The notes: generated by a model from the sequence alone, not told the origin. Positions 3,777-62,663 are shown, counted from the first letter of the stretch. The stretch is DNA of 64,000 nucleotides from an uncultured Gammaproteobacteria bacterium (GCA_964540055.1 CAZILC010000007.1:1272-65271); one strand, 5' to 3'. A program made the numbers and translations.

Positions 3777-3855
3777 TAGCGTACATCTATTATAGATTTT
3801 AAGAAACTGATTGTACAGGGTTGATGTCTTTACGTGCTATATATAATATAACTTA

Positions 3856-4224
3856 ATGAAAGAACGGCCTTTTTTATGTGATGGGTGTCCAATAGCAAAA
3901 GGAAGAGCTAATTTATTGATCACTGAAGCATCGACAGGTGAAAGAACAAGAAAAAGAAAAGAGGATTATTTATTTGGGATAGTCCCTAAACCACAAAGAG
4001 TTGTAATTCTTTACGCGAAAGCTATGGATATGACAACATCTCCAGCAAAAGGTGACAGAGTGAGATATGCAGTTAATCCAGGACTTAGGAAAAGAAAAGG
4101 AATTTTGAATAAAATTTTGCGGTGTAGAGGGCCGGAGAAGGGTTACAATGATTCGCTACGATGCCCTGCAATCACTATCATCCCGCCATCTCGTAAAAGA
4201 AATCCTAATTTTTTCAGTAGTTAG
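3856..4224 (+). CDS. Small very basic Cys-containing hypothetical protein (orphan); coding status uncertain
   Basis: 122-aa ORF, K/R-rich, CDGC near the N-terminus plus a C-x13-C pair near the C-terminus. Promoter-like TTGATG-17-TAATAT ends 6 nt before the ATG. Stop overlaps the gatB stop by 4 nt. No family recognised. Confidence 0.4.
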   Translation: MKERPFLCDGCPIAKGRANLLITEASTGERTRKRKEDYLFGIVPKPQRVVILYAKAMDMTTSPAKGDRVRYAVNPGLRKRKGILNKILRCRGPEKGYNDSLRCPAITIIPPSRKRNPNFFSS

Positions 4225-5564
4225 CTTTTGAGTGTTTTAATTATTTTATTCTTAACCACTTGTGTATCAACTTTCTTGCCGATTTTTCTCATCGTCATTC
4301 CGAGAAGGAACATGAGGGATGCTTCTTTGCCGTTTTTATAATCTGCTACTGCTTTTTCATTATCTTTAATTACGTCATCAATAAATTTCTGCAGTTCTTT
4401 TTCATCTATTGTTGCAACTTGTTTGGAAGCGGTGATTTGTTTCAAAAGTTCTTCAATTGACATTTTCTCATATTCAATTTTTTTATTAATGATCCAGTTG
4501 GCGATTGCTTTGGCATCAAGATTCTCTGGTTTCTTTTTGATTGCCATTTCGAAATAATCAGCAAGAGGTTTTTCTCTCGTTAAAATTTCAGCATCATAGG
4601 TAGATAATGCATATTCTTTTTCAAAACGCGCAATTTTTTTGTCCGGTAATTCTGGCACTTGTACTTTTAGTCTGCCAACTGCGCCTTTTGGCAAATGGAT
4701 TGGTGGGATATCAGGTTCTGGGAAATAACGGTAATCATGAGCTTCTTCTTTGGAACGCTGGGAAAAAGTTTTACCTTTATCTTCATTCCAGCCGCGAGTT
4801 TCCTGAGCGGGAGTTTGACCGGATTCAAGAATTTCTTTTTGTCGTACAATTTCAAAATTAATTGCTTTTTCAACAAATTTGAATGAGTTAATATTTTTTA
4901 CTTCGACTTTGTATTTTGGTAAATCTTTTTCTTGTACATATTGTTTTGTTTTCGGTTTTGTAGTCAGGGAAATATTCGGCTCCAGTCGCATTTCGCCTTT
5001 ATCCATATCGGCATTTGCAACGTCAAGATAGCGAACAATTTGCTGGAGTCTTTCAAGATATTCTTTGACGTCAAGCGCGTTATCAAAATCCGGTTCTGTT
5101 ACGATTTCTACAAGTGGTACACCACTACGATTAAAATCGATAAGACTAACTTTTCTATCCTCAATTTCCTGATGAGAAAGTTTGCCCGTGTCTTCTTCCA
5201 TGTGGACTCTACGGATTCTGATTTTTTTGCCGCTTTTTAATTCTATTAATCCATCTTTACCAAACGGCAGATCATACTGACTTATCTGATAACCTTTTGC
5301 AAGATCCGGATAAAAATAATTTTTTCTATCAAACTTTGAGAATTCGTTTATCTCACAATTTAATGCCAAAGCAATTTTGATGCACCATTCGATTGCAAGT
5401 TTGCTTGGAACCGGCAATGCTCCCGGGAGCCCAAGACATACGGGACACGTATGAGAATTTGGTTCTTTGCCGAAATATTCTGCAGAACAAGAGCAGAACA
5501 TTTTGCTTTTCGTTTTTAATTCCACATGGACTTCAAGTCCGATGATAGGTGTATATGTTTTCAT
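4221..5564 (-). CDS. gatB: Asp/Glu-tRNA amidotransferase subunit B
   Basis: 447 aa. GatB hallmarks: PIIGLEVHVEL, Cys cluster CSC...CPVCLGLPG, C-terminal YqeY-like helical tail. 4-nt overlap with gatA. Confidence 0.95.
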   Translation of the reverse strand: MKTYTPIIGLEVHVELKTKSKMFCSCSAEYFGKEPNSHTCPVCLGLPGALPVPSKLAIEWCIKIALALNCEINEFSKFDRKNYFYPDLAKGYQISQYDLPFGKDGLIELKSGKKIRIRRVHMEEDTGKLSHQEIEDRKVSLIDFNRSGVPLVEIVTEPDFDNALDVKEYLERLQQIVRYLDVANADMDKGEMRLEPNISLTTKPKTKQYVQEKDLPKYKVEVKNINSFKFVEKAINFEIVRQKEILESGQTPAQETRGWNEDKGKTFSQRSKEEAHDYRYFPEPDIPPIHLPKGAVGRLKVQVPELPDKKIARFEKEYALSTYDAEILTREKPLADYFEMAIKKKPENLDAKAIANWIINKKIEYEKMSIEELLKQITASKQVATIDEKELQKFIDDVIKDNEKAVADYKNGKEASLMFLLGMTMRKIGKKVDTQVVKNKIIKTLKS

Positions 5565-6970
5565 ATATTCGGCTTCTTTAAATATAAGGGATTTTCCAAC
5601 TGATATTTATGTGCAATGTTGAGAATTTTTTCTTCTGAGAAATGTGGGCCGATGATTTGAAAACCAATAGGCAAACCTGCTTTTGAAAACCCACACGGCA
5701 TATTGATTCCCGTTAGACCGGCGATTGATGATGGCTCAACCAGCAAATCTGCAAGTTCTCCAAACATTGATTGCCCTTCTGTTGCGCCGATAGGAAGAGC
5801 AGTTGTAGGACTTGTTGGACCAATAATTATATCGACATCTTTAAATGCATTTTTGAAATCTTCAATGATAACCGTTCTAACTTTCAAAGCTTTGTTGTAA
5901 TATTGATCATAATAGCCGGCAGAAAGCGTATATGTCCCCAGCATAACTCTGCGTTTGGCTTCTTCGCCAAAAAAAGAACGGTCATTTGCATAACGAATGC
6001 CATCATATCGGGCAAGATTGGAAGATACTTCGGCGCGCTGAATGATGGTATATACAGCAATTGCGTATTTTGGATGGAACAGATTAATTTTTTTAATTTT
6101 TGCTCCAAGTTTTTCAAATGTTTTTAATGATTCTTCTACTGATTTTTTAACCTCAGGATCTACTCCTTCAAAATAATCATCAGCAACACCAATTGTCAGA
6201 CCTTTAATTTCATTGTTTAAATTTTTTGAATAATCAGGAACTGGATTTGGTCCTGTTGTTGCGTCATGTGGATCTTGTCCTGCCAAAACTTGAAGAATAA
6301 GTGCGCTATCTTCAACAGTTCTGGTGATTGGTCCGGGACTATCAAGAGATGATCCCATCGCAACAACCCCATAGCGACTGACACGACCATACGTTGGTTT
6401 GAGTCCAACAACTCCGCACCAGCTTGCGGGCTGACGAATTGATCCCGCGGTTTCTGAACCAATTGCAGCAAGTGTTTCATCAGCAGCCATCGAAGCAGCT
6501 GCACCACCTGATGAGCCACCAGGTAAATGGTCGGTATTCCAGGGATTACGCGTAGGTCCATAATCTGAAGTCTCTGTTGATGAACCATGAGCCCAAGCGT
6601 CCATATTTGTTTTGCCCAGTAGTACCATCCCGGCATTTTTTAATTTTTCAACGACAGTTGCATCGAAAGGGGGAATGTAATTGTCCAGAACCTTGCTTGA
6701 TGCTGTAGTTCGAATCCCATTTGTTGAGAAATTATCTTTTATTGAAAGTGGAATTCCGACAAGTGGTAAATCAGTGCCTTTTGCAATTTTTTCATCAGCA
6801 GTTTTCGCATTTGCCAGTGCTTCATCTTCAGTTACTGTCACAAAAGCTTTGAGTTTAGTATCTATTTTTTTAATACGTTCTAAATATGCTTTGGTTAACT
6901 CAAGCGAAGAATATTTTTTAGCTTTTAGATCTTTTTTTGCTTGTGTAATTGTTAGTGTTTTGATATCCAT
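5561..6970 (-). CDS. gatA: Asp/Glu-tRNA amidotransferase subunit A
   Basis: 469 aa. Amidase signature region (GGSSGGAAASMAA, GSETAGSIRQPAS) with typical GatA length and ends. Confidence 0.95.
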   Translation of the reverse strand: MDIKTLTITQAKKDLKAKKYSSLELTKAYLERIKKIDTKLKAFVTVTEDEALANAKTADEKIAKGTDLPLVGIPLSIKDNFSTNGIRTTASSKVLDNYIPPFDATVVEKLKNAGMVLLGKTNMDAWAHGSSTETSDYGPTRNPWNTDHLPGGSSGGAAASMAADETLAAIGSETAGSIRQPASWCGVVGLKPTYGRVSRYGVVAMGSSLDSPGPITRTVEDSALILQVLAGQDPHDATTGPNPVPDYSKNLNNEIKGLTIGVADDYFEGVDPEVKKSVEESLKTFEKLGAKIKKINLFHPKYAIAVYTIIQRAEVSSNLARYDGIRYANDRSFFGEEAKRRVMLGTYTLSAGYYDQYYNKALKVRTVIIEDFKNAFKDVDIIIGPTSPTTALPIGATEGQSMFGELADLLVEPSSIAGLTGINMPCGFSKAGLPIGFQIIGPHFSEEKILNIAHKYQLENPLYLKKPNI

Positions 6971-6978
6971 AAACCGTA

Positions 6979-7620
6979 TTATAGATCAGAACTGCCTTTT
7001 TGTCTCGGCTCAAATCCAAAGGTCTCATCGACAATAAATTCTGTACCATCGGAACGCAATGTAATATACCCTGCGTTAACAAATCGTTTATTCTCAAGTT
7101 CTTCATAACTCGCAATACCTAGATGTAAGAGAATAATTCTTAATACTCCACCATGAGTTCCAACTAATATTTTTTTATCCGGATACGCAACTGCCGTTTC
7201 TCGTAAAAATCTGAATACCCTTTGAGCTATTTCTTCATCACTCTCTGCATCTCCTGCAAATTTATACGTTTTCCTGGCTTCATTTTTAAGCTCCATTAAC
7301 AATTTTTGATGAGCCAATACTTTATCTGAGGATTTTTTTTCAAGTGATCCAAATGCGCGTTCACGTAAAGCTTTCGTTGTTTGTACTGCCAGATTGTGTT
7401 CAAGAGATATTATTTCGGCAGTGCGTTTTGCACGTAATAAATCGGATGAAAACGCAAGATCAAAATGCATATCTTTGAATTTAAGAGCTGATTCTTTTGC
7501 CTGTTTTTCTCCTAATGCATTTAGTAATGTATCGTTTTGTCCCTGAACAATTCTGTTTTTGTTCCAATCGGTTTCACCGTGTCGTATCAAATAAAAAGTG
7601 GTCATATTATTCTTCATCAT
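6979..7620 (-). CDS. Histidine phosphatase superfamily (phosphoglycerate-mutase-like) protein
   Basis: 213 aa. The N-terminal LIRHGETDWN catalytic motif and a distal GTHGG histidine are typical of branch 1 histidine phosphatases. Confidence 0.8.
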   Translation of the reverse strand: MMKNNMTTFYLIRHGETDWNKNRIVQGQNDTLLNALGEKQAKESALKFKDMHFDLAFSSDLLRAKRTAEIISLEHNLAVQTTKALRERAFGSLEKKSSDKVLAHQKLLMELKNEARKTYKFAGDAESDEEIAQRVFRFLRETAVAYPDKKILVGTHGGVLRIILLHLGIASYEELENKRFVNAGYITLRSDGTEFIVDETFGFEPRQKGSSDL

Positions 7621-8556: not shown

Positions 8557-9342
8557 TTATACTCCAAATCCAAGCCTATTGGCAATTGTTTCTTTTGCTT
8601 TTTTTTCGAGCGAATCATCTAAAAATTCCAGTTTTATTTCTTTTTTATATTTTATTTCAAGAGCTTTCATAATGAGCCAGTCGGCAATTTGAGGATTTTT
8701 TGGTAAGAGTGGGCCGTGTAGGTAACTGCCGATCGCGTTTTTATAGACAACTCCTTCAGTTCCATCTTCACCATTATTGCCAAAGCCTTTGACAACTCTG
8801 GCAAAAGGTTTAGTAGTTGGACCCAAATATGTTCTACCCCCGTGATTTTCAAAACCGACAACTTGTGTAGTTGGTAGTTCGTAGCTGGCGGTTAGATTTT
8901 CAGGTAGTATTTCTTCAACGACATTTCCTATTAATCTATCTTGCTTGGGACCAGGATGACGGGAAAACATATCAAAAATACCAAGCCCCTCAATGCGTTT
9001 ACCTTCCGCTGGTTCATAATAATTTCCCATAAGTTGGGGTGCACCGCAGACAAATAAAGCGGGTTTTTCAGCCTCAATGAGGGATTTAATTGCACGTTTT
9101 TTCTTCATTAAATCTTGCATAACAATTTCTTGTTCGCGATCCTGTGCGCCACCTCCGAAGAGGAGATCAACGTTTACTAGTGATTTGTCACTTGAGTTCG
9201 GGTCGATAGGTAAAATTTCCACTGTAATATCCCGCCATTCGCAGCGTTTCTGCAGAACAAGAATATTTCCTCTATCACCATAGGTACTCATGAGTTGTGG
9301 ATAGAGCCAACCGATGGTTAGTTGCAATTTAGATTTTGTCAT
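8557..9342 (-). CDS. gatD: Lipid II isoglutaminyl synthase, glutaminase subunit (CobQ/GatD-type amidotransferase)
   Basis: 261 aa. Closely follows the GatD pattern known from Staphylococcus (VGFENHGGRTY, GxGNN, YLHGPLLPKN). 4-nt overlap with murT. Confidence 0.85.
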   Translation of the reverse strand: MTKSKLQLTIGWLYPQLMSTYGDRGNILVLQKRCEWRDITVEILPIDPNSSDKSLVNVDLLFGGGAQDREQEIVMQDLMKKKRAIKSLIEAEKPALFVCGAPQLMGNYYEPAEGKRIEGLGIFDMFSRHPGPKQDRLIGNVVEEILPENLTASYELPTTQVVGFENHGGRTYLGPTTKPFARVVKGFGNNGEDGTEGVVYKNAIGSYLHGPLLPKNPQIADWLIMKALEIKYKKEIKLEFLDDSLEKKAKETIANRLGFGV

Positions 9343-10643
9343 AGTATTTTTTTACCAGTTAAAATTTTTCTTACATCAAGCATAGCTGAATAATTGGGTA
9401 GGATATATAACGTTTTGTTTGGTGATAAATTAGCAATTCCTGCATTTACTGCTTCTTTTAAATCTTCAAATGTCTCTGTTTTATTTTCATAATTTTTTAT
9501 CCCTAATTCATATTTCATACGAAGTGCCATATCATACACTCTGTCGCCCGCGACAAGAATTTTTTTAAACGATTGAATTTCAGGTAAATCAGTGTCCCAA
9601 ATCCATGAAATATCATGTCCATCCGGGATTCTGTCATTAAGAACAAGTAATATTGTTTGACCGCGCAGTTCCTGAATTGTCACGTATGATTGATTAAAAC
9701 TGGTGGGATTTTTTGACAGAAAAAGCTGTACTTTTTTGCCTTGATAAGAAATGATTTCCTGTCTGCCAAAAGCTGCAGAAAAGTTGCTGAATGCATCGTT
9801 GATTTCAGTATCACTCAGTCCAATATGTTTTAAAACAAGAACTGCTGCGTTGACATTATATTTATTATAAGTACCAGTGAGGGGATAGAAAGCATTCGTT
9901 GTGATTTCAGTTTTTGGATGTTTTAGTCCGCATTTGTTGCAATGCCAATTGCCTAAATGGGAAAACGTAACCGAATCAAATGTAAGATTATTACCGCATT
10001 TTGGACAAAAGATTGAATCTGCCGAATGCTGTACGGTCCCTTTTTTATTACTTTGGAGGCCAAAATAATGAGCGTTTTGTTTATTTGTTTTTAAGAATTC
10101 GGGTATCGTCGCAATCTGAGGATCATCTGCGTTGAGGATGAGTTTAGTTTTTTCCGGCAGAGTATCGATGGCATTTTTCCATTTTTCTGCGATCGTATGA
10201 ATTTCTCCGTATCTATCCAGCTGATCGCGAAAAAGGTTCAATAATACAAGATAATCCGGTGAAATTTGTTTTAATACTAATGGAAGTACATTCTCATCGA
10301 CCTCAAATATTGCAAAATCTTGAGTGAGTTTACCTTGATTATTGGTGTTCAATAAAATTGTTGAGGCAACTCCATTGAGCAGATTTGCTCCCGATGCGTT
10401 TTGTAAAATACTTTTTCCGTTTGATTCAAGTCCTTTTCTGAGAAGCGCAGATGTCGTGGTTTTTCCATTTGTCCCGGCAACAATAATTATTTTAGTTGGG
10501 GATTGAGAAAGAATTTCTTTAATAAAATTAGGGTTGCCTTTAAGTGCAATATGACCAGGCCACGTAGAACCATTGCCGCGGTTTAATAATTTACTAATTT
10601 TTGAAACTGATTTACCTATGCTAGTTAATGCTATATTTATCAT
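9339..10643 (-). CDS. murT: Lipid II isoglutaminyl synthase, Mur-ligase-like subunit
   Basis: 434 aa. Mur ligase P-loop AGTNGKTTT, NLFRDQLDRYGE, internal Cys4 ribbon CPKCG...CNKCG and a DUF1727-like C-terminus (GRDISW-type motif DGHDISWIWD). Confidence 0.85.
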   Translation of the reverse strand: MINIALTSIGKSVSKISKLLNRGNGSTWPGHIALKGNPNFIKEILSQSPTKIIIVAGTNGKTTTSALLRKGLESNGKSILQNASGANLLNGVASTILLNTNNQGKLTQDFAIFEVDENVLPLVLKQISPDYLVLLNLFRDQLDRYGEIHTIAEKWKNAIDTLPEKTKLILNADDPQIATIPEFLKTNKQNAHYFGLQSNKKGTVQHSADSIFCPKCGNNLTFDSVTFSHLGNWHCNKCGLKHPKTEITTNAFYPLTGTYNKYNVNAAVLVLKHIGLSDTEINDAFSNFSAAFGRQEIISYQGKKVQLFLSKNPTSFNQSYVTIQELRGQTILLVLNDRIPDGHDISWIWDTDLPEIQSFKKILVAGDRVYDMALRMKYELGIKNYENKTETFEDLKEAVNAGIANLSPNKTLYILPNYSAMLDVRKILTGKKIL

Positions 10644-10680
10644 TAATCTATTTTATCAGATCTTGTAGAAGTAAGAAGTC

Positions 10681-10989
10681 TTATCGTCGGCGTCTTGGAG
10701 TAGCTTCCCAACCGATCACATAATTAACAAAGGGAATTTTAGATCTTCTGCTTTTATATCTTTGATCATTTATCTCATCTCTTGTACGATCATATATTTT
10801 ACCTTTCCGTTGTGTTGTGTTGGGTACCATGATTCTAACTCTATCTTCACTAGCTACTTTTAGTGATGAAACATGTATTCCATCCAAATCTCCTCCAAAT
10901 GCATGATCCAGTAACGTTGCTGGCATAATCTCCCTTTTCGGTCCTACAGTAATTCTGTCAAATAGTTTTGGGGTTTCGGTTATTGTCAT
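10681..10989 (-). CDS. Hypothetical protein (orphan), Arg-rich C-terminus
   Basis: 102-aa ORF ending ...WEATPRRRR. Has its own promoter. No family recognised. Confidence 0.55.
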   Translation of the reverse strand: MTITETPKLFDRITVGPKREIMPATLLDHAFGGDLDGIHVSSLKVASEDRVRIMVPNTTQRKGKIYDRTRDEINDQRYKSRRSKIPFVNYVIGWEATPRRRR

Positions 10990-10995
10990 CGCGAA

Positions 10996-11024
10996 AGTAT
11001 AGTTTAAGTAAGGAATTTTTTCAA
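10996..11024 (-). promoter_or_regulatory. Sigma70-like promoter, leaderless-type
   Basis: Minus strand reads TTGAAA-17 nt-TATACT, then 6 nt (ttcgcg) to the ATG at 10989. It sits immediately after the htpX stop. Confidence 0.6.
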
Positions 11025-11929: not shown

Positions 11930-12474
11930 TAGAACTGTACCTTAACAGGTTTCTTATCTTCTTCACTTGCAGCAAAGAATTCAGCAGGCTGGAAATGGAA
12001 CATACTTGCTATAAAATTCGTCGGTACTGTTTGCAATTTCGTATTATAATCCATGACATTTGAATTATAGAATTGTCTTGAGTACGCAATCTTATTTTCA
12101 GTATCAGAAAGTTCTTCCTGAAGTTCCATAAAATTTTGACTTGCTTTAAGATCCGGATAATTTTCAGCGACTGCAAAAAGTGATTTAAGTGTGCCTGAGA
12201 GAAAATCATTTGCCTCGGCTTTATCTTTTGTAGATTTAGCTGACATGAGACTTGCTCGTGCTTTTGTAACTTCTTCAAAAACATCTTTTTCGTGTTTGGC
12301 ATATCCTTTGACAGTTTCTACCAAATTCGGAATAAGATCTGTTCTTCTTTTGAGCTGTACATCAATTTGACTTGATGCTTCAGAAATTCTTACTCGCGCG
12401 GTTACTAAGCCGTTGTAGGCAAAAAAGAAAAATAAAATTACTGCAGCAATTATTAGTATGACAATAAGTGTCAT
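11929..12474 (-). CDS. lemA: LemA family membrane protein
   Basis: 181 aa. N-terminal TM, then the conserved LemA core ([36 protein letters not shown]). Confidence 0.85.
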
Positions 12475-12477
12475 ATA

Positions 12478-14256
12478 TCATTCACCTCCTTCAAACCAAT
12501 TATTTAGTTCATTATATTCCATTGCATTTAAAATGTCACGTTTGGTAGCCCATCCGCGACGTGCGACTGTTACGCCGTACTGCATCAGATCCATTTGATC
12601 AACCGCGTGGCTGTCAGTATTGATAAAAAGCTTAATTTCACGTTTTACAGCTTCTCGAGTGAGAATATCAGTAAGATCCAAACGTGTCGGCCAAGCATTA
12701 ATTTCAAGTGCTTTATTATTTGCTTTACAAAAATCAAATAATTTATCCCAATCAAGATCTATCGGTGGCCTTTGATTTATCAGTCTTGCACTTGGATGAG
12801 CAAGAATTTTTGCTTTGGGGTGCGATAGACCGTTCAGAACGCGTTTGGTCATTTCGTCACGACTCATTGAAAAAGAACTATGAATAGAAACAATACTTGC
12901 ATCCAGGTAGTCGAATGCACTATCAGGAATGGCTAATTTCCCACTGGCAAGGATATCAGTTTCAAGCAGAGAGAAGATATGAACATTTTTTTTATACTTT
13001 TCTCTGAGTTGTTCAATAAATTTAATCCTTTTTTCAAGTAGACTCAAAATTTCCTTTTCGGAATGTTTACTGGCGCTAGGATTGTGTTCAGAGAATCCCA
13101 GATAGTGGTAACCGAGTTTCAAAGCTTTTTCAATCATTACTTCCATCGAACTTTGTCCGGCATCATGACTTTCTTCAATAGGGAAGCTGGAATGTAAATG
13201 AAAATCTCCTTTTATATCGGATAGTTCTATAATTTGGGGGAGTGCACCTTTTAGTCCCAATTCTATTTCTCCAGTATCTTCGCGCATTTCCGGTGGAACC
13301 CATTGCATGCCAATTGCTTTATAGAAAGATTCCTCAGTTTTATATCGAATGTATTTAGTGTTATCTTCACCTTTTTTCTTTATTCCGAAATCAGAAAGTG
13401 AAAGACCAATTGATAATGCATACTCCCGAAGATGGACGTTATGTGCTTTGCTACCAGTGAAGTGCTGTAGCATTGCTCCAAATCCATCAGGAGGAATGAC
13501 CATAAGATCAACTTGTTTGCCCCCCGATGCGAGAAGTGACGCAGATCTTTCACCTCTTTCAATAATTCGCTCTTTACGGGGAAATGCAATGAAATGATCA
13601 ATTGCCTCTTGTGGATTATTAGTCGCTACAGCAATATCAATATCGCCAATTGTTTCCCGCTTTCGTCTCAGACTCCCCAAAGGTTGAGCCTCAATCACAG
13701 TAGGTGATTTTTTAAGATAAGCGATTAAGATCTCTGCCAGTTCATTCGCGAAAGGGAGCGGCATTCGTGTTGTTTTACCTGTACCGACTTTAAATTCTTC
13801 AATTGCTCGTAGAATATCTGATTGTGATTTTTCGCCAAATCCCGCAAGCGGAGCAATTTTGCCCTCCCGTGCAACTTTTTCTACATCGGCAATTACTGTT
13901 TGGGGATCGTTTAGTTTAAATTCACTGACGAGACGGAATGCTTTTTTGGGTCCCAAACTTGGTATTTCTACAAGAGGAAATACAGACTGCGGAATATCTC
14001 TCATGACGGATTCAAAGTGTTCTACTTTTCCAGTTTTAAATAATTCCTCTAGACGTGATTGAATTGTCGGTCCAACTCCAGGAATTCCTGCCATTTTGTT
14101 TTCTTTGTAGAGATCCTGCAATTCGTGAGGCAAATTTTCAATTGATTCAGCTGCTTTTTCATAGGCAAGAAGTTGGAATCTATATTTTTTTTCATCCTTT
14201 ATTTTGTAGGCAACAGCGATATTATTTAATAGTTTGCTAATTTCTTTATTTGTCAT
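12478..14256 (-). CDS. polX: Family X DNA polymerase with C-terminal PHP domain
   Basis: The ORF track starts at 14304. The ATG at 14256 (MTNKEISKLLNNIAVAY...) matches PolX N-termini. HhH motifs, a GSLRRKRETIGDIDI nucleotidyltransferase motif and a PHP domain (FHLHSS...). Confidence 0.85.
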   Translation of the reverse strand: MTNKEISKLLNNIAVAYKIKDEKKYRFQLLAYEKAAESIENLPHELQDLYKENKMAGIPGVGPTIQSRLEELFKTGKVEHFESVMRDIPQSVFPLVEIPSLGPKKAFRLVSEFKLNDPQTVIADVEKVAREGKIAPLAGFGEKSQSDILRAIEEFKVGTGKTTRMPLPFANELAEILIAYLKKSPTVIEAQPLGSLRRKRETIGDIDIAVATNNPQEAIDHFIAFPRKERIIERGERSASLLASGGKQVDLMVIPPDGFGAMLQHFTGSKAHNVHLREYALSIGLSLSDFGIKKKGEDNTKYIRYKTEESFYKAIGMQWVPPEMREDTGEIELGLKGALPQIIELSDIKGDFHLHSSFPIEESHDAGQSSMEVMIEKALKLGYHYLGFSEHNPSASKHSEKEILSLLEKRIKFIEQLREKYKKNVHIFSLLETDILASGKLAIPDSAFDYLDASIVSIHSSFSMSRDEMTKRVLNGLSHPKAKILAHPSARLINQRPPIDLDWDKLFDFCKANNKALEINAWPTRLDLTDILTREAVKREIKLFINTDSHAVDQMDLMQYGVTVARRGWATKRDILNAMEYNELNNWFEGGE

Positions 14257-14374
14257 ACTGAAGTTTTGCATTCTGAGTGTACCAGAGCATTGACGCACGC
14301 GCAAGATTCCGTTAAAATACAGATTGACTCAAAACTGTTTGAGGTTTTGAATGCTCAGTTTGGTCAAGCAAACT

Positions 14375-14449
14375 GGGGTGGTAGCTCAGTTGGTTTAGAG
14401 CGCCTCCCTGTCACGGAGGAGGTCGCGGGTTCGAGTCCCGTCCATCCCG
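14375..14449 (+). tRNA. tRNA-Asp (anticodon GUC)
   Basis: Manual cloverleaf. Acceptor GGGGTGG/CCATCCC, D-arm GCTC..GAGC, anticodon stem CCTCC/GGAGG with loop CTGTCAC, T-arm GCGGG-TTCGAGT-CCCGT, discriminator G. CCA is not encoded. Confidence 0.9.
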
Positions 14450-14553
14450 CAGTAGATGTAAATATTACAACTATATTATCCTCATCCTTTTAAATTACTC
14501 CTGGTTATTTTAACTATAAGTTAATAATATTGATTTTCATGGTATAATAAGCC

Positions 14554-15594
14554 ATGAGCACCAGTGAAAGAAGAGAAGGCCAACAACCTGAGTCAGAGCC
14601 TACACCAGAAGATCAGTTTAGAGCTTTAACAATTACACATTTTGTCCTCCATGAAAATGCTGGATCTATTGAAGGTGTTTTAGTGAGAACTGAACCAGAG
14701 AATGTTTTAAATAGTATTGTATATCAGCATTTAAAGGCAAATAGTTTGGAACCAAAACAAAAAAGTACTATTCAAACGCAAGTTGAGCAAGATATTGAGA
14801 GTAATGGCTTTCAGGCAGAATATTATCAAACGGCATTAGATACAATATCTATACTTTCAAGTGCAGAAGAAAATCTGTCAATAGTGGACTTAAGTGAAAT
14901 TACCGGGTCTATTCAAATGAGATTGGATGAAGCAAAAGCTGGGGAACCTGAGAAAACAAATCAATTGACTGCAACAAAAAAACCTAAGAGAAGGCAAAGA
15001 CTTGCACATGGTGCGATGATTACTTTGGCTACACTTGGCGGTTTTACAGCAGCATCAGGATTTTCAACTGCTTCTTATGCTCTGATGCAACGAGATCCTT
15101 TACCGGAATATTCATCAGCATCTACGAGAAGTCATGTTTTATCTGAGATTGATTTGGCAATACAGGAACTACGTAAAAAGCCTCCACATCAGGAAACGCA
15201 AGTTAATGGTTTGGGCTTGCAAACAACAGTGACTCATCCTGCAGAGTTGCCTGATACGGGTGCTGCTTGGACTACATTACATAGTGTGCAAAGAGAGTTA
15301 TCAGGAACCGGTCCACAAGTTGTAGGGCAAATTAAAAGAGTTGAAAGAATACTATTTAATCCTAATTATAGCGATCAGAATATTTTTGCGCCTGAAAGAA
15401 ACTTGCTTAGTCAAGTAAGAGGACGAATTCCGGTTCTTGCAAATAGAGAAGTTTCCCGTGAGAATGCCAGGGATACGGCAATTCTTAAAGGAGGTTTAAT
15501 TGGATTAGGTACGGGCGCAATCTTTGTTGGCTCTGCAGGCGCATTATATGAAGTAAAGAGAAGAACCGGAAGAAGGCCAAGAGCGAAGCGGTAA
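14554..15594 (+). CDS. Hypothetical membrane protein (orphan)
   Basis: 346 aa. Acidic N-terminus, predicted TM around AMITLATLGGFTAASGF, a second TM near the C-terminus, then an Arg-rich tail RRTGRRPRAKR. Extended -10 TGgTATAAT ends 5 nt before the ATG. Confidence 0.6.
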   Translation: MSTSERREGQQPESEPTPEDQFRALTITHFVLHENAGSIEGVLVRTEPENVLNSIVYQHLKANSLEPKQKSTIQTQVEQDIESNGFQAEYYQTALDTISILSSAEENLSIVDLSEITGSIQMRLDEAKAGEPEKTNQLTATKKPKRRQRLAHGAMITLATLGGFTAASGFSTASYALMQRDPLPEYSSASTRSHVLSEIDLAIQELRKKPPHQETQVNGLGLQTTVTHPAELPDTGAAWTTLHSVQRELSGTGPQVVGQIKRVERILFNPNYSDQNIFAPERNLLSQVRGRIPVLANREVSRENARDTAILKGGLIGLGTGAIFVGSAGALYEVKRRTGRRPRAKR

Positions 15595-16710: not shown

Positions 16711-16782
16711 GCGGGCGTAGTTCACCGGTAGAATGTCTCCTTCCCAAGGAGAAGGCAGTGGGTCCGACTCCCATCGCCCGCT
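16711..16782 (+). tRNA. tRNA-Gly (anticodon CCC)
   Basis: Manual cloverleaf. Acceptor GCGGGCG/CGCCCGC, anticodon stem TCTCC/GGAGA with loop TTCCCAA, T-arm GTGGG-TCCGACT-CCCAT, discriminator T. CCA is not encoded. Confidence 0.85.
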
Positions 16783-16797
16783 CAGGAGTTTTTCATT

Positions 16798-17223: not shown

Positions 17224-17244
17224 GATTTTTGCTACAATAATGCT

Positions 17245-48779: not shown

Positions 48780-48809
48780 TTGACAGAGGATGAGTATCTC
48801 AGATAAGAT
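48780..48809 (+). promoter_or_regulatory. Pilin promoter, copy 1
   Basis: TTGACA-18 nt-TAAGAT, then an 18-nt leader to the ATG at 48828. Same architecture as copy 2. Confidence 0.6.
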
Positions 48810-49354: not shown

Positions 49355-49372
49355 GTATAATAGAGTAACTAT

Positions 49373-50789: not shown

Positions 50790-50819
50790 TTGACAACAGT
50801 TGAGTAAGTTCGCTAAGAT
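50790..50819 (+). promoter_or_regulatory. Pilin promoter, copy 2
   Basis: TTGACA-18 nt-TAAGAT, then an 18-nt leader to the ATG at 50838. Confidence 0.6.
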
Positions 50820-51026
50820 TTATGTAGATTAAAAAATATGACTGCCAAAATGTTTAAAAGTCCAAAAGGTTTCACACTTATCGAATTACTCGTTGTTATC
50901 GGTATCCTCGCAATTCTTCTTGCTATTACCCTTATCGCTATCAATCCAGCACGCCAATTTGGTCAGGCAAATGACACAAAGAGACGAAGTGACATTAATG
51001 CGATTTTGAATGCGATTGGCCAATAC
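50790..51026 (+). repeat. Duplicated pilin 5' block, copy 2
   Basis: See copy 1 (48780-49016). Confidence 0.9.
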
Positions 51027-51345: not shown

Positions 51346-51384
51346 GTTTGGATTATCAATATAATTTTAGTATACTAAGTACAT

Positions 51385-51765
51385 ATGGCAAAAATTCTCC
51401 TTGCAGAAGACGATCAATTTATCCGGGATATTTACACGGAAGTTCTTAAAAGTGCAGGTTTTGATACCACAACTGCAATTGATGGACAAGACGCACTCAC
51501 CAAAATCAAAAAAGGTGGATGGGACGCGGTGCTTATTGATAATGTAATGCCGGTGATGACAGGTGTTGAAGTGTTAAAGTCTCTCAAAAAAGAAGAAATT
51601 CATATCTTAGCGAAATATATAATTCTTATGACCAATACTGAAGAAACGCATGAATTGGGTGATATTACTGGAATGTACGATAATTATGTGCTCAAAAGTG
51701 CTATAACACCTGCAGATCTTATCGCAAGAATTAAAAAAGGACTTGAGAAGGTAGAAACAAAATAG
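51385..51765 (+). CDS. Single-domain response regulator (CheY-like receiver)
   Basis: 126 aa. ILLAEDD, acceptor region AVLIDNVMPVMTG, conserved Thr (LMTN) and Lys (YVLKS). Confidence 0.85.
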   Translation: MAKILLAEDDQFIRDIYTEVLKSAGFDTTTAIDGQDALTKIKKGGWDAVLIDNVMPVMTGVEVLKSLKKEEIHILAKYIILMTNTEETHELGDITGMYDNYVLKSAITPADLIARIKKGLEKVETK

Positions 51766-52878: not shown

Positions 52879-54096
52879 TTATTTTTTAGGCACAATGAGC
52901 CGGTACAAAACAGAATCATTTACGCTTTCAATTTCATATGAACAGTCGGCAAAAACCACGACACTTTTTCCTTGCGCAAGCGAAAGAGAAGTTTCTTCAG
53001 ATGTAATGGTGGATGAACCTTTTACTGCTAAGATAATTTCCGCAGAAGTTGAAGTATTTTTATATGTTTCATGATCATTAAGTGCAATTTTACTTATCAG
53101 ATATTCATCAGCGGGTACAGGATAAGAAGTTTCATTGCCATTTTTATCGCCATCAAGAACATGGGGAATTTGTGCTTCAAAAATGGTAAATTTCAGAAAG
53201 CCTTCGATATCTATAGGTTTGTTCGTTGCACCGATCCGAGCAATATTGTCCGAGTTTTGCATAATTTCAATATATTGTCCTTCGAGAAATGCATGGAGTA
53301 CGCCAGCTGCTTCAAAAATAGATTGACCAGGTTTTAAATGCACAAGGTTTAAAAAATAAATAGAAAATAGTCCTCGGTCAAATTTGCCTTCATGCATATC
53401 GAAATCCTTTACAGCTTTGGCCGCCCAATAATCATGGGACTCTTTTTTTAGTTTTCCTTCTTCAAATAATGGGACAATTCGTTTTACCAATGGTTCAAAC
53501 ATCATACTTACTTCTTGATCTGTCATTTCTTGCAAAACATGGATATAAAGTTTCTTATAATCGCCATTTTCAAAGTAGGGAATGAGTGGTCTGAATTCCT
53601 CTATCTCATTCAAACGAGCCAACAGTTCGTTTTCGGATGTAAAACCATAAAGGGAATAGAAGTCACTGATAGCAACAGGCATTTCTGTTTTCGAGTTAGC
53701 ATCCTTATATGTCCTTTTCAGCTCAGTTGCGGGTATTCCGGTTTTTTCTTCTTCTGCAAAACCTTCAATTGCCTGCTGTTTATTCGGATGGACTTGTACA
53801 GAAAGCATTTTTTTAGCTTCACATAATTTAAAAAGATAAGGAAGTTCTCCGAATGTACGTTTGACTTCCTCACCGAGGACACGTTCCGGATCTTCATTAA
53901 TTATTTCCTCAAGCGTTTTCTCTTCTCCATCGATTTGAACGATTGAAGGACCTCTTTTATGCGCTCCAATCCAGTATTCTGCATAGGGAGTTCCGGGTTC
54001 AGCTTCAAAACCTAGGGTTTGCGGTATCAATTTATTGCCGCCCCAATCATAAGGACTTGAGAAAATCTTTCCGGTAATGGGGTAAATTTTTTGCAT
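52879..54096 (-). CDS. manA: Mannose-6-phosphate isomerase, type I-like
   Basis: The ORF-track start (54105) is TTG. ATG at 54096 lies 8 nt after TATAAT. Cupin metal motifs LSVQVHPNK and GVLHAFLEG. Confidence 0.7.
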   Translation of the reverse strand: MQKIYPITGKIFSSPYDWGGNKLIPQTLGFEAEPGTPYAEYWIGAHKRGPSIVQIDGEEKTLEEIINEDPERVLGEEVKRTFGELPYLFKLCEAKKMLSVQVHPNKQQAIEGFAEEEKTGIPATELKRTYKDANSKTEMPVAISDFYSLYGFTSENELLARLNEIEEFRPLIPYFENGDYKKLYIHVLQEMTDQEVSMMFEPLVKRIVPLFEEGKLKKESHDYWAAKAVKDFDMHEGKFDRGLFSIYFLNLVHLKPGQSIFEAAGVLHAFLEGQYIEIMQNSDNIARIGATNKPIDIEGFLKFTIFEAQIPHVLDGDKNGNETSYPVPADEYLISKIALNDHETYKNTSTSAEIILAVKGSSTITSEETSLSLAQGKSVVVFADCSYEIESVNDSVLYRLIVPKK

Positions 54097-54122
54097 TGGA
54101 AGCAATTATATGATTAATTATA

Positions 54123-56275: not shown

Positions 56276-56971
56276 TTAAACGCCCAGCAGAAAGAAGTCA
56301 ATTGTATTGATTAGGGGTTGTGTAAGCGTTCCGGTTTTCTGGGCTGTTTCAATGTTGAATAGCTGTTCGTAGAGCTGTAAGAGATGCGGCAGGGGAAAGC
56401 TTTTTGCCTGCTTTTCAAGTTTGCCTTGCTGCCAGGGTTGTATTCGTTTTACTTCATCAATTTTTTCCGATTCAGTGTTGTTTGATAAAGCTAACAATAT
56501 GCGAAATTGGCGAACTAACATAAAGAAAACCATTTCGGTTTCGGTTGTCGTGACAGTTTCGTGGAACAGTTTAATAAGCAATTTGCTATTACCGGGTTGC
56601 AGTGCATCAAGAAGCTGAAAAAGCGTTTGGGGAAGTTTAAAGATTCTCACATTAGCGTGTTTTAATTCATTGAGAGTACTTCTCTCCAATTCTTTATTTT
56701 CCCAAAAAACAATAGTATTTTCAGTGGAGTTTTTCTCAATATAGGAAAGAATAGCTTTATAATCACCATTTTTTTTCTTTTTCGTGAGGTACTGTTCAAT
56801 AAAAACATATTTGGTTTCACCAAACAATCCGCCTCCTTCAAAAAGCTGTGTTAAATCTGTTAAATTTATTTGGTCTGCATCAAGCAATATAGCATCAGCA
56901 TATTTGATCTTCTCAGACAGAAAAGATTTTCGTGATTGTGCAGTATCAGAACCGTGGATTATGGTAAGCAT
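56276..56971 (-). CDS. holA: DNA polymerase III delta subunit-like
   Basis: 231 aa. The N-terminal IHGSD... region and helical C-half resemble short HolA proteins. Weak, based on pattern only. Confidence 0.5.
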   Translation of the reverse strand: MLTIIHGSDTAQSRKSFLSEKIKYADAILLDADQINLTDLTQLFEGGGLFGETKYVFIEQYLTKKKKNGDYKAILSYIEKNSTENTIVFWENKELERSTLNELKHANVRIFKLPQTLFQLLDALQPGNSKLLIKLFHETVTTTETEMVFFMLVRQFRILLALSNNTESEKIDEVKRIQPWQQGKLEKQAKSFPLPHLLQLYEQLFNIETAQKTGTLTQPLINTIDFFLLGV

Positions 56972-56977
56972 GGTAAA

Positions 56978-57358
56978 TTATACTTCGGTTTTCTTTTTAT
57001 ACTCTTTGAATAACTGATTTGCAAGGGAATTGATATTTCTGCTTCTTGTTCTGTGGGGGAGAAGGGCGCCTGAAAAATTTTTGGGAATGTGGAGGAGTTC
57101 ATGGATGAGTACTTTCTTCTTTTTGTCATCATCGAGTTTGTCGTAATGCTGGGATAAGACTTCAATGACATATGCCGGTTCCACAGACAGGGCTCGCTGG
57201 AAAATTTTTGGGAAAGACCACGTTCGTGCATAAGCACGAGTTTTGGATCCTTTTGTCCGGTAGCAGTAAATCCGGTCAAGATTGATATGAGGAAGGTCCA
57301 GGTGTTTTACAATATCTTGTAAATCAGTTTTAATATCTGTTGCATCCTGCCAATCCAT
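56978..57358 (-). CDS. Predicted small zinc metallopeptidase (HExxH)
   Basis: 126 aa. A single VLIHELLHIP motif. Resembles SprT/Wss1-like or archaeal-type predicted metallopeptidases. Family assignment uncertain. Confidence 0.5.
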   Translation of the reverse strand: MDWQDATDIKTDLQDIVKHLDLPHINLDRIYCYRTKGSKTRAYARTWSFPKIFQRALSVEPAYVIEVLSQHYDKLDDDKKKKVLIHELLHIPKNFSGALLPHRTRSRNINSLANQLFKEYKKKTEV

Positions 57359-57359: not shown

Positions 57360-58517
57360 TTACCTTTTGACGAAAAAATTAACTAGGTTCTCAAGTGTCA
57401 AAGCTAATGAAAAATGATGTTGAAGCGGTTGGAGTTTTTCAATATTTTTAGTGGCAATTGCTATTTCTTTTGGATGAACTGCAGCTGCCAGAACCTGATG
57501 TGTTGGTAAGCTTGGTACACCTTTCACTTTTGACAGATTATAAATGTAGGCATATTGTTTTGTTTTATATCCTGATCCGGTTATAAATGAAAATTGTGTA
57601 AAGGGGCCGTACGATGCCTGGAGAAGAAATGGTGTTATAGCGACAATACTGGGATCATTCCAAATTGTTTTTAGAGTCTGGTCATAATAGGTGACTCTTG
57701 TATCCTCAGAAACTGATTGGGATGACCAACCTGTTTCGGTAATAAATACGGGGAGCGTTTTATTACTCATTGAGCGAATGAGATTACGCTCTTGCAGAAA
57801 ACTTCCAACACCCATGCTGCTGGTAACATTGGGAGCCTGGGAAAAACCAGGATTTGGATAGGAATGACTGCTCATGCCGTCGATCTGATTAAAGATTCCC
57901 GGGACTGCTTGATTCATTGCACGAAGATAATTATATTCGTCAATGTATATATTCCCTTGATCGGGCGCTGCATTATCCATCCCCGCACTGATGATAAAAA
58001 AGTCAGGACTCGTGGATTTAAAAATGGTAACTGCGAAATTTAACAAATGAGCGTATGCCGCGGGATCAGCTGCACCTCCCCATTCATCGGCTCGGTTAAC
58101 TTCATTATAAACGATGATGTAACGGTTTTTGGTTGGCCACTCAAGTGAGTTTAAAAATATAGCAGCATCGACAATATCGCTTTCGTTTGGTGTTCTCCAC
58201 ACGAGTTTATTGAGAGAATCATTTTCTGTTGCAAGGCGTATTATCGGGATGAGGTGATATCTTTTGCAGTTATCCATAAATTGCTGCCATTTTGAGATAT
58301 TTTCATCACCTGACTGGATAGGAATAGTAACATATCCCCAATCTCCGCCGTGATTGACTAGCTGGGCAGCAGCGCTAACTTCTGATGGATCCAGAATATG
58401 GACACCTATTTTATTATTGGCAACTGCGAGTGGATTTTCTGCGGCGGATGCGGGTTTGATCCAGAAAAAAAAGACAACAAAAAACATTAGCAGCAATATG
58501 ACACGAGATTTGAGCAT
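57360..58517 (-). CDS. Secreted glycoside hydrolase-like protein (clan GH-A TIM barrel)
   Basis: 385 aa. Signal peptide (LLLMFFVVFFFWIKPASA|AE), candidate acid/base in VYNEVN and nucleophile in FITETGW. Confidence 0.55.
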   Translation of the reverse strand: MLKSRVILLLMFFVVFFFWIKPASAAENPLAVANNKIGVHILDPSEVSAAAQLVNHGGDWGYVTIPIQSGDENISKWQQFMDNCKRYHLIPIIRLATENDSLNKLVWRTPNESDIVDAAIFLNSLEWPTKNRYIIVYNEVNRADEWGGAADPAAYAHLLNFAVTIFKSTSPDFFIISAGMDNAAPDQGNIYIDEYNYLRAMNQAVPGIFNQIDGMSSHSYPNPGFSQAPNVTSSMGVGSFLQERNLIRSMSNKTLPVFITETGWSSQSVSEDTRVTYYDQTLKTIWNDPSIVAITPFLLQASYGPFTQFSFITGSGYKTKQYAYIYNLSKVKGVPSLPTHQVLAAAVHPKEIAIATKNIEKLQPLQHHFSLALTLENLVNFFVKR

Positions 58518-58644
58518 TTATTTAACTATAACGAATAGGATCAATTTACGCAAGCTAAGCAATGATTTTCCAATAGTATTGAAACTGATCATTAACTATT
58601 TATAATTGCCCTATTAGCTGTATAATAAGTACAGATTTTCAAAT

Positions 58645-61438
<2,794 letters not shown>

Positions 61439-61480
61439 AGGTATATTATAGTTGATGAGAAAGGGAGTTTCAATCTTTGA

Positions 61481-62014
61481 TTAGACTGGAAAACGGTTTT
61501 TGTTTGATAATCCTATTATTTTTTTTACCCGCGCAAAGCGAATGTACGGGCCCATATGTTTTTTAAACACTTTCGTAGCTTCATTTTCAGCCCTCAAGTC
61601 ATTAATCCAGTACTCATAGGGATCGACATTTTCTGCAATTGAAATTATGGCTGGAAATATGAGAGATCTGGCAGTTTGTAAATATTGATTATATACGATA
61701 TTACTGCCCTTCCGTAATTCCTGAGTCACTTGAGAATCATCAGTTACAGCGAGTATAAAGCCGTGTCTGCGAATTGATCTTTTCTGCCGGGACGTAAAAC
61801 CTTGTTTGATATTGCTCAAATTTCCTTGATCGTACGCATCGATAAATTTTTGATTAACATCTGCATCAGATTCTGCTTTAATAAGCCGTAGCCTCATCGC
61901 AATAAATCTCGGGTGATCCGGTAGCCAATTGCCTCCCAGGAAAAAGTGTAAATATGCCTTTGCATCGGCATAGGGATCAGGAGCCTGCGTTTCACCATGT
62001 TCTTTTCCTCTCAT
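61481..62014 (-). CDS. Hypothetical protein (orphan)
   Basis: 177-aa ORF. Extended -10 TGgTATCAT ends 6 nt before the ATG. No family recognised. Confidence 0.55.
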   Translation of the reverse strand: MRGKEHGETQAPDPYADAKAYLHFFLGGNWLPDHPRFIAMRLRLIKAESDADVNQKFIDAYDQGNLSNIKQGFTSRQKRSIRRHGFILAVTDDSQVTQELRKGSNIVYNQYLQTARSLIFPAIISIAENVDPYEYWINDLRAENEATKVFKKHMGPYIRFARVKKIIGLSNKNRFPV

Positions 62015-62078
62015 GAGTGTATGATACCAAAATTGCCTATAACTTGATTGCTATATCTCAAATAGATAAAATAATATA

Positions 62079-62663
62079 ATGCCTATTCTCACGTACAATG
62101 CCGGCTGGATGCTATATAATATTTTTCTAGCTTTATTAGCATTAGGATTCGGCTATTTCTTCATAATCAGTAAATATAAGTTTGCTAAATATCTCTCTGG
62201 CATTTTGTGGCTATTATTTCTTCCTAATACTATTTATATATTTACCGACCTTGTTCATCTTATTGATCAATGGGCAATAGTTGACTGGGATATTAAGATA
62301 GTTCTGGTACTACAATATTTGGTATTCCAAATTGTGGGATTTGTAACATTTGCTTTCAGTATGTACCCATTTGAAAAAATTATTCTGACATGGAAATATT
62401 TCAGATCCAGAAAAATATTGGTGCTCATACTATTTAATTTTTTTATTGCTTTTGGCATGGTGCTTGGGAGAGTGGAAAGAATTAATTCGTGGGAAGTTTT
62501 TACCGATCCCGTAAAGGTGCTACGATCAGGTTTGCACGTCTTTAATTCACTGGATTTATTTGGTCTGATGCTTTTATTTGGTATACTTTGCAATTGTTTT
62601 TATTTCCTCGTCAGGAAAAAGGTTATTAAAATTTCAGATAAACTTACGCAAGTATTGGATTGA
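62079..62663 (+). CDS. DUF1361-like polytopic membrane protein
   Basis: 194 aa with about 5 TM helices. The LFLPNTIYIFTDLVHL motif matches my memory of the DUF1361 FLPNAPY-TD-HL signature. Confidence 0.55.
   Translation: MPILTYNAGWMLYNIFLALLALGFGYFFIISKYKFAKYLSGILWLLFLPNTIYIFTDLVHLIDQWAIVDWDIKIVLVLQYLVFQIVGFVTFAFSMYPFEKIILTWKYFRSRKILVLILFNFFIAFGMVLGRVERINSWEVFTDPVKVLRSGLHVFNSLDLFGLMLLFGILCNCFYFLVRKKVIKISDKLTQVLD

Follow-up and report, generated by a model that had tools for sequence, protein, structure and literature searches.

Among the translation start models of GeneMarkS-2, group C is characterized by a Pribnow box (TANNNT) 6-8 nucleotides (nt) before the first genes in operons and by a dual start model, and group B by an AT-rich ribosome binding site (RBS) of non-Shine-Dalgarno type before all genes (PMC6028130). 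Group C genomes using genetic code 11 are almost all of high GC content, and the low-GC cases are Mycoplasma with code 4 (bioRxiv 10.1101/2022.07.25.500264). For Deinococcus deserti, 167 leaderless genes out of 262 mapped ones are quoted in PMC6028130. Here, we analyzed a stretch of 64,000 nt deposited under the name of an uncultured Gammaproteobacteria bacterium (GCA_964540055.1 CAZILC010000007.1:1272-65271; "the window" in the following denotes this whole stretch), in which sigma-70-type promoters end only a few nucleotides before the start codons of many genes heading transcription units. A first-pass annotation had listed 25 such starts and had suggested that leaderless mRNAs are the default for first cistrons in this organism. 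Judged from its sequence, the window belongs to group C, with the -10 box at 6-8 nt, sigma-70 elements specific for heads and ATG or GTG as start codon. The architecture is thus the known one, without a new mechanism, and the novelty lies in the host lineage, i.e. low-GC, standard-code members of the Candidate Phyla Radiation (CPR).

The window is very compact and has a GC content of 38%, about 72 genes and two tRNAs; an Rfam scan of the 64 kb yielded these two tRNAs only and no riboswitch or leader RNA. Pfam confirmed murT, pyrG, dus, UPF0102/yraN, uvrB, ribE, rsmI, manA, and pfkB, and additionally found dnaE, gatCAB, rplS, pyruvate kinase, and a type IV pilus operon. The CTP synthase (pyrG) is 72-87% identical to its counterparts in 80 species-representative genomes, of which those with an informative title are named Candidatus Levyibacteriota, Roizmanbacteria, Daviesbacteria, Microgenomates or Patescibacteria. 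Because the closest pyrG homologues come from genomes so titled, the source organism is, by this marker sequence, a Levybacteria-like member of the Microgenomates within the CPR. A look-up of two window proteins, L19 and Dus, in a protein/contig collection gave no entry for either. Many public genomes with a near-identical Levybacteria pyrG are titled Saccharimonadales, Sulfotelmatobacter, Methylomirabilota, Limnocylindrales or "uncultured Gammaproteobacteria" (L002, L004, L008, L011, L028, and others), which are evidently placeholder or wrong labels.

For comparison, 80 independent pyrG-bearing loci of different species (L001-L080; 1.18 Mb, 1053 usable genes) were used as related set. The GC content in the lineage is 35-42%, and open reading frames (ORFs) are long under translation table 11 with TGA as stop codon. 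Genes were listed without regard to promoters by taking the longest ORFs greedily and the first ATG as start. A gene was regarded as head of a transcription unit if it was divergent to its neighbor or located more than 15 nt behind a gene on the same strand. A strong -10 match was defined as TANNNT with at least 5/6 identity to TATAAT, and TANNNT as such formed a looser class. Dinucleotide-preserving shuffles of the upstream regions served as chance model, and 150 kb of the Bacillus anthracis plasmid pXO1 (30-35% GC), processed with the same pipeline, as negative control.

All 25 motifs of the first-pass annotation could be read back from the window, with exact hexamers, -35 boxes, spacers of 16-17, and distances of 5-9 nt (mode 6) between the -10 hexamer and the start codon. 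They are given here with -35 box and spacer where present, the -10 hexamer with or without TGn extension, and the distance to the start codon:

3844-3858, plus strand: TTGATG-17-TAATAT, 6 nt before ATG 3856
10641-10655, minus strand: murT, TGaTAAAAT, 6 nt before ATG 10643; strong -10 in 9/16 orthologues
10987-11001, minus strand: TTGAAA-17-TATACT, 6 nt before ATG 10989
14543-14556, plus strand: TGgTATAAT, 5 nt before ATG 14554
19489-19505, plus strand: TTGAAT-17-TATAAT, 8 nt before ATG 19503
20250-20286, plus strand: pyrG, TTGACT-17-TGgTAACAT-AAATC-GTG, 5 nt before GTG 20284
22651-22668, minus strand: TTGAAT-17-TGaTATATT, 9 nt before ATG 22653
22696-22709, plus strand: TATATT, 5 nt before ATG 22707; divergent partner of 22653, 53-nt gap
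23394-23408, plus strand: TTGACA-17-TATGTT, 6 nt before ATG 23406
25002-25016, minus strand: TTGATT-16-TGcTATACT, 6 nt before ATG 25004
26054-26070, minus strand: dus, TGcTATAAT, 8 nt before ATG 26056; orthologues 3/3
26082-26096, plus strand: TGgTATTAT, 6 nt before ATG 26094; divergent from dus, 37 nt between the start codons
26905-26919, plus strand: UPF0102/yraN, TATACT, 6 nt before GTG 26917
31629-31644, minus strand: uvrB, TGtTACAAT, 7 nt before ATG 31631; 24/24 orthologues
32120-32137, minus strand: TTGACT-17-TAAAAT, 9 nt before ATG 32122
33256-33270, minus strand: ribE, TGtTACAAT, 6 nt before ATG 33258; start corresponds to MFTG of solved homologues
34855-34870, minus strand: TTGACT-17-TATAAT, 7 nt before ATG 34857; 11/12 promoter match
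35536-35550, minus strand: TTGATT-17-TATAAT, 6 nt before ATG 35538
35616-35630, plus strand: rsmI, TTGAAT-16-TATAAT, 6 nt before ATG 35628; strong in 11/17 orthologues
38393-38407, plus strand: TGgTAAAAT, 6 nt before ATG 38405
40418-40432, minus strand: TATAAT, 6 nt before ATG 40420
54094-54110, minus strand: manA, TATAAT, 8 nt before ATG 54096; second hexamer TGaTATAAT 20 nt upstream
61436-61450, minus strand: pfkB, TTGAAA-17-TATAAT, 6 nt before ATG 61438
62012-62026, minus strand: TGgTATCAT, 6 nt before ATG 62014
62067-62081, plus strand: TTGATT-17-TAAAAT, 6 nt before ATG 62079

This list is a lower bound, as there are at least six more cases with a distance of 5-9 nt, and additionally six near-leaderless heads with the hexamer at 10-12 nt:

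6968-6983, minus strand: gatA, TATAAT, 7 nt before ATG 6970; TAA of the upstream gene inside the hexamer, possible operon-internal promoter
17233-17247, plus strand: TGcTACAAT, 6 nt before ATG 17245; 21-nt gap
23813-23829, plus strand: rplS (ribosomal protein L19), TATAAT, 8 nt before ATG 23827
51371-51387, plus strand: response regulator, TATACT, 8 nt before ATG 51385
56969-56982, minus strand: TATAAT, 5 nt before ATG 56971; 6-nt gap, upstream stop codon inside the hexamer
58515-58530, minus strand: TATAGT, 7 nt before ATG 58517
3774-3794, minus strand: near-leaderless, dnaE, TATAAT, 12 nt before ATG 3776
27301-27320, plus strand: near-leaderless, pyruvate kinase, TTGTGA-17-TATAAT, 11 nt before ATG 27318
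28769-28787, plus strand: near-leaderless, TGaTATACT, 10 nt before ATG 28785
38306-38326, minus strand: near-leaderless, TTGATA-17-TATACT, 12 nt before ATG 38308
40498-40517, plus strand: near-leaderless, TTGACA-17-TATAGT, 11 nt before ATG 40515
49356-49375, plus strand: near-leaderless, TATAAT, 11 nt before ATG 49373

The offset profile of strong -10 matches in the window peaks at 6 nt (12/68 genes), compared with about one gene at any other offset. At heads, a strong match ends 5-9 nt before the first ATG in 24/48 cases versus 3.8 ± 2.0 after shuffling (z = 10), and TANNNT is found there in 35/48 cases versus 11.2 ± 2.8. According to the TANNNT rate corrected for the shuffle background, about 65% of the window heads are of the leaderless type, and 50% according to the strong-motif rate. 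Among in-frame ATGs deep within genes, the strong motif precedes 2.5% in the window and 1.5-2.5% overall. The related loci gave the same picture, with 117 strong hexamers at offset 6, 56 at offset 7, and 51 at offset 8 versus about nine per other offset, and with the strong motif at 221 of 767 heads versus 38.8 ± 6 in shuffled regions (z = 30). The signal was present in every identity tier and in the loci titled Roizmanbacteria and Microgenomates. The resulting estimate for heads in the relatives, 28% (strong) to 49% (TANNNT), is a lower bound, because starts were called blindly and were not curated. In pXO1, no -10 peak was found at 5-9 nt (0-1 per offset) but an SD peak instead, with 86 occurrences of Shine-Dalgarno (SD) 4-mers at offsets 6-11 over 106 genes. 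The first-pass annotation had proposed comparing the distances with those in shuffled upstream regions; for the window, the 80 loci and the pXO1 control, their distribution clearly differs from a TA-rich background, since the spike occurs in the window and its relatives and is absent from pXO1.

In sequences aligned on the hexamer, the DNA upstream of it shows T-n-T-G-n. The extended -10 element TGn accompanies 40% of the start-adjacent hexamers versus 5.5% of those in coding sequence (p = 2e-51). The -35 trinucleotide TTG was observed 59 times at a spacer of 17, where 4.7 occurrences were expected, as well as 27 times at a spacer of 18 and 12 times at a spacer of 16, and none elsewhere; 69-73% of the start-adjacent hexamers carry TGn and/or the -35 TTG. 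The spacing between hexamer and start codon equals the canonical distance between -10 box and transcription start site (TSS). The motif is also specific for heads, as it precedes 28-60% of the divergent or well-separated ones versus 9-10% of the genes located at most 15 nt behind a same-strand neighbor. It is most frequent at divergent heads of the window (12/20 strong). Divergent start codons are only 37-96 nt apart, which leaves no room for two promoters and two leaders. De novo k-mer enrichment yielded TATAA, TAATA, TGCTA, and TGGTA at heads, and GGTGA, AGGTG, and GGAGG at internal genes. Among the tightly linked internal genes, 23 carry the hexamer at 5-7 nt, and about half of these have a TG or -35 element as well and look, by their sequence, like promoters embedded in the 3′ end of the upstream gene.

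Two arrangements at these promoters may be described here. In the divergent pairs 26056/26094 (37 nt) and 22653/22707 (53 nt), the promoters overlap back-to-back, and both promoters of the former pair are of the extended -10 (TGn) type, with no -35 box that could be used. At 6978-6983 (gap 8 nt) and 56977-56982 (gap 6 nt), the upstream gene ends with a TAA stop codon that is part of the putative TATAAT of the next gene, a design that recurs in related loci as caATTGc-N17-gcTATAATaccctcATG (L009, L017, L024, L056).

Start codons are not used equally behind such promoters. A full promoter, i.e. a strong -10 plus TG or -35 element, was found at 5-9 nt before 212 of 1730 in-frame candidate ATG codons (12%), 13 of 656 candidate GTG codons (2%, mostly pyrG) and three of 1013 candidate TTG codons (0.3%, background). 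This preference for ATG fits, because leaderless mRNAs need a 5′-terminal AUG. Taking the longest ORF makes ribE 23 codons too long, uvrB nine, and rsmI five, and affects other genes too, and the first-pass annotation had claimed that for these three genes and manA the distance to the -10 box picks the start supported by homology. Indeed, solved riboflavin synthases begin with MFTG exactly at ATG 33258 of ribE, 23 codons inside the longest ORF, homologues of UvrB begin at most two residues from ATG 31631, and the RsmI core begins at ATG 35628. For manA, ATG 54096 is compatible with homology, but TTG 54105 and ATG 54096 are not discriminated by it. In pyrG, an in-frame TAA sits one codon ahead of GTG 20284, which is the only start available before the conserved KYIFVSGG core.

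Orthologues were compared over a range of 50-87% protein identity. In 24 species, uvrB has a start codon at the corresponding position, and TGnTAnAAT precedes it by 6-9 nt in all 24, while the upstream DNA apart from this motif, the discriminator included, has diverged. In orthologues, the ATG column is kept and coding conservation begins right there, whereas the 6-nt discriminator varies. The pyrG promoter TTGAC-N16-18-TGn-TANNNT-nnATC-GTG is kept in 60/77 species. Strong -10 boxes are kept in rsmI (11/17), murT (9/16), and dus (3/3), but not at tightly linked internal genes.

The pyrG start has features of its own, with conservation that reaches well past the -35 and -10 boxes. Its discriminator has the consensus AAATC (nnATC in all 60 matching orthologues), followed by GTG plus C, and GTG is the start codon in 59 of the 60, which is unusual for a leaderless gene. 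Initiation that senses nucleotides occurs at pyrC in Escherichia coli and at pyrG in Bacillus subtilis. As a speculation, AAATC-GTGCC could be a start-site switch sensitive to CTP/GTP, choosing between C and G, in which a transcript that begins exactly at GUG, or does not, is translatable or not.

The first-pass annotation had stated that the promoters leave no room for an SD sequence. SD complementarity at such genes is below the coding background: the SD 5-mer core occurs at 0-3% of the genes with a -10 box at 5-9 nt versus 9% of random coding positions. It is found at 12-15% of the heads without -10 box and at 21-25% of the tightly linked internal genes. A genuine SD sequence was recognized in only two or three window genes (12474, 47207, 16798). 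The two SD examples given before, AGGAGG at 47207 and AGGAG at 16798, are present. Two of the three are operon-internal counter-examples to the promoter-adjacent starts:

47189-47209, plus strand: SD AGGAGG, 7-9 nt before ATG 47207
12472-12492, minus strand: LemA gene, SD GGAGGTGA before ATG 12474

The third, a GNAT acetyltransferase gene, begins at ATG 16798, 14 nt after tRNA-Gly(CCC) (region 16711-16800), with AGGAG directly past the 3′ end of the tRNA. No promoter-like hexamer precedes ATG 16798, and the gene is, from this arrangement, probably co-transcribed with the tRNA.

In the Levybacteria loci, same-strand neighbors are joined most often by the 4-nt ATGA overlap (64 cases) and next most often by gaps of 1-8 nt, which points to translational coupling. 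At internal genes, the SD variant GGTGA/AGGTG, complementary to ...UCACCUCC, is enriched as much as GGAGG. Since no 16S 3′ end is contained in the sequences examined, a canonical anti-SD was assumed, with which the enrichment of GGAGG/AGGTGA at internal genes is consistent. Loss of the anti-SD has been reported only in some Parcubacteria (PMC9297842).

The positions and statistics of the hexamers, the promoter anatomy, the start-codon specificity, the SD depletion, and the conservation are direct observations. Together with the pXO1 control, the spacing, the TGn and -35 elements, the head specificity, the ATG preference, the SD depletion, and the conservation in orthologues support the leaderless interpretation of first cistrons by the first-pass annotation. 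We consider it probable that sigma-70 promoters are placed such that transcription starts at the ATG and yields leaderless mRNAs, and that downstream cistrons are translated by coupling. Most units would be headed by a promoter of the housekeeping sigma-70 type, consisting of a TTGACA-like -35 box and/or TGn plus a TATAAT-like -10 hexamer (-12 to -7), the end of which lies 5-9 nt (mode 6) upstream of the start codon. With RNA polymerase expected to start about 7 nt downstream of the -10 box, the transcript would have the A of the ATG as its first nucleotide, or begin no more than 1-3 nt ahead of it, and would have neither a 5′-untranslated region nor an SD sequence. The ribosome carrying the initiator tRNA would then bind to the 5′-terminal AUG by the leaderless route. 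Downstream cistrons would be translated mostly by coupling via ATGA overlaps or 1-8-nt gaps, and a weak SD might help at about one gene in five.

Several points weigh against this interpretation or limit it. We infer the mRNA 5′ ends and the mode of ribosome loading from the DNA. Hexamers at 8-12 nt could, by their spacing, give leaders of 1-6 nt rather than strictly leaderless mRNAs. About eight window heads carry the -10 hexamer 15-20 nt upstream and no SD, which implies, as predicted from the spacing, short SD-less leaders. Two pilin paralogues belong to these. The gene lexA is probably a leadered exception with a predicted leader of about 55 nt and no SD. The estimates of 28-49% in the relatives allow for a sizeable class of leadered or otherwise initiated heads. 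The earlier statement that operon-internal genes carry SD sequences had the right direction (20-25% versus 9% in the control) but was overstated, as most internal genes have neither signal. In a generic promoter scan of the window with a 9/12 threshold, 66 sites were found versus 57 ± 7 after shuffling, i.e. no overall enrichment, although among the top-scoring sites 8/14 end 6-12 nt before a start. A pyrimidine at -1 (Y-1/R+1 rule) had to be rejected as TSS signature; T or C occupies this position in 80% of the leaderless class versus 69-73% of the others, and it does not discriminate because it is common at all starts. Finally, same-strand genes with their own promoter often start just 20-60 nt after the preceding gene, with no terminator recognized in between, and such genes may also be expressed by read-through, as internal genes without SD on the longer transcript.

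The last point leads to the alternative that survives best, namely that leaderless mRNAs are possible, but that expression comes mostly from read-through or other upstream transcripts, with leaderless initiation being auxiliary and not the default. Besides the many same-strand genes with an own -10 box 20-60 nt behind their predecessor, internal genes are evidently translated without SD. However, divergent heads cannot receive same-strand read-through, yet the motif is most frequent exactly there, and the promoters are conserved under selection, so that we regard this alternative as improbable.

Much less likely still is that the TA-rich hexamer acts on the RNA level, as a non-SD signal for ribosome binding or translation enhancement on leadered mRNAs like in group B of the Bacteroidetes. 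The rarity of SD sequences in the lineage would require another initiation signal, and the 23 tightly linked internal genes with the hexamer at 5-7 nt would suit this explanation. TGn and a TTG at exactly 16-18 bp, however, are explicable only as DNA signals for RNA polymerase, and about half of the internal cases have one of these elements. Furthermore, the hexamer is 3-6 times commoner at heads than at internal genes, whereas in group B the motif is located before every gene (PMC6028130).

An equally slim chance is given to real promoters combined with wrong annotated starts, such that translation begins at a downstream codon and the mRNAs are leadered. Starts were called by simple rules, and taking the longest ORF gives a clearly or probably wrong start in gatC (8618), lexA (33366), and polX (14304). 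Against this, solved homologues have their N-termini at the starts assigned to ribE, uvrB, and rsmI, pyrG offers no other start before its conserved core, the promoters are phased to the ATG with a precision of 1 nt, and in orthologues coding conservation sets in at the retained ATG column behind a variable discriminator. That TA-rich hexamers simply occur by chance near starts in short AT-rich intergenic DNA has practically no probability left: at 38% GC and with short spacers TANNNT does fall at 5-9 nt in about 23% of the shuffled upstream regions, but the offset and shuffle tests refute such an origin (z = 10 and z = 30, with a peak sharp to the single nucleotide), as do the co-occurring TG and -35 elements, the conservation in orthologues, and the missing peak in the even more AT-rich, SD-using pXO1.

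The leadered exceptions can be described as follows. The pilin paralogues (N_methyl motif; both begin with ATGACTGCC) at 48780-48830 and 50790-50840 have TTGACA-18-TAAGAT-18-ATG in common, with 18-nt spacers that are almost the same, lack an SD, and form a short-leader class apart from the leaderless majority. Judged from its sequence context, lexA probably starts at ATG 33414 (MPGVLYKKERETLEF) and not at TTG 33366. Its promoter, TTGACA(33321)-18-TATATT(33350), is overlapped by the perfect palindrome ATATACGAAATATCGTATAT (33330-33349), which is unique in the window and nearly unchanged in two related loci (L048:16460, L068:9871), and is a candidate LexA operator.

Regarding other gene models, the 75-aa ORF 14266-14493 overlaps tRNA-Asp (14375-14450) and is likely an artefact of the ORF track. 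The gatC ORF from 8618 overlaps its neighbor by 62 nt (8557-8618) and is matched by Pfam from residue 39 onwards, and its start is probably further downstream. The start TTG 14304 of a PolX-like gene is unsupported, with 0 orthologues having a start there. A PF18894 gene ("putative phage metallopeptidase") is located at 56978-57358 within a housekeeping operon, beside a DNA polymerase III delta-like gene.

Among the described systems, the group C representatives Mycobacterium tuberculosis, Streptomyces, and Corynebacterium are like the window with respect to the -10 box at 6-8 nt of first genes and the ATG or GTG at the 5′ end. These Actinobacteria are of high GC content and have a bare TANNNT, whereas the window lineage has 35-42% GC, a near-consensus TATAAT and frequent TGn and -35 elements. 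For the remaining genes, group C lets expect an SD; here, where its peak covers 21-25% of the internal genes and 12-15% of the heads without -10 box, SD use is much lower than in the Actinobacteria. The leaderless majority in D. deserti and the Deinococcus-Thermus group is similar to the roughly 50-65% of window heads, but these bacteria belong to a different phylum, have a high GC content, and were mapped experimentally, whereas the present case is known from sequence alone. With the low-GC Mycoplasma of group C, the lineage shares the low GC content and a reduced genome, and 30-60% of their transcripts are predicted to be leaderless (bioRxiv 10.1101/2022.07.25.500264). The Mollicutes, however, use code 4, whereas the window lineage belongs to the CPR and reads TGA as stop. 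Archaea of group D (Haloferax, Sulfolobus) have in common with it leaderless first cistrons as default, low SD use, and internal cistrons often coupled by overlaps; their TATA/BRE box lies about 22-26 nt upstream, whereas the signals in the window are bacterial -35 and -10 elements of sigma-70. Low SD use and an AT-rich motif near the start are also shared with the Bacteroidetes of group B, but the motif there precedes all genes and is no promoter, whereas the one in the window is specific for heads and accompanied by -35 and TGn. In SD-led genomes of group A, the SD is located 5-10 nt before most genes, whereas here it is found in at most 25% of any class.

The group C architecture is most familiar from Actinobacteria and Deinococcus-Thermus. 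Since code-11 group C genomes are almost all of high GC content, a CPR lineage with 35-42% GC and the standard code is an unusual host. A literature search, of incomplete coverage, returned no paper linking leaderless transcription or SD usage to CPR, Patescibacteria, Microgenomates or Saccharibacteria. GeneMarkS-2-type tools already model this architecture, and such genomes may already be assigned to it by annotation pipelines without mention, so that the surprise for a specialist is moderate. For practical purposes, start calling centered on the SD will misplace gene starts in metagenome-assembled CPR genomes, whereas the rule "-10 at 6 nt" gives starts and promoters together for a lineage without cultured members.

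The finding extends leaderless architecture in bacteria beyond the high-GC Actinobacteria and Deinococcus and the code-4 Mollicutes. CPR ribosomes are reduced, with a short bS1 and missing bL9/uL30 (PMC9297842). We tentatively consider, at somewhat less than even chances, that Levybacteria, and possibly Microgenomates or CPR in general, follow an essentially archaeal-style regime in a bacterial setting, in which at least 60% of the units are leaderless, the SD is almost unused even at internal cistrons, these being translated by coupling, and leaderless initiation is the main pathway of the reduced ribosomes. If true, such a lineage would be the first of its kind among low-GC bacteria with the standard code. 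The result thereby points to leaderless initiation plus coupling, with little use of the SD, as the normal mode in a lineage with reduced ribosomes.

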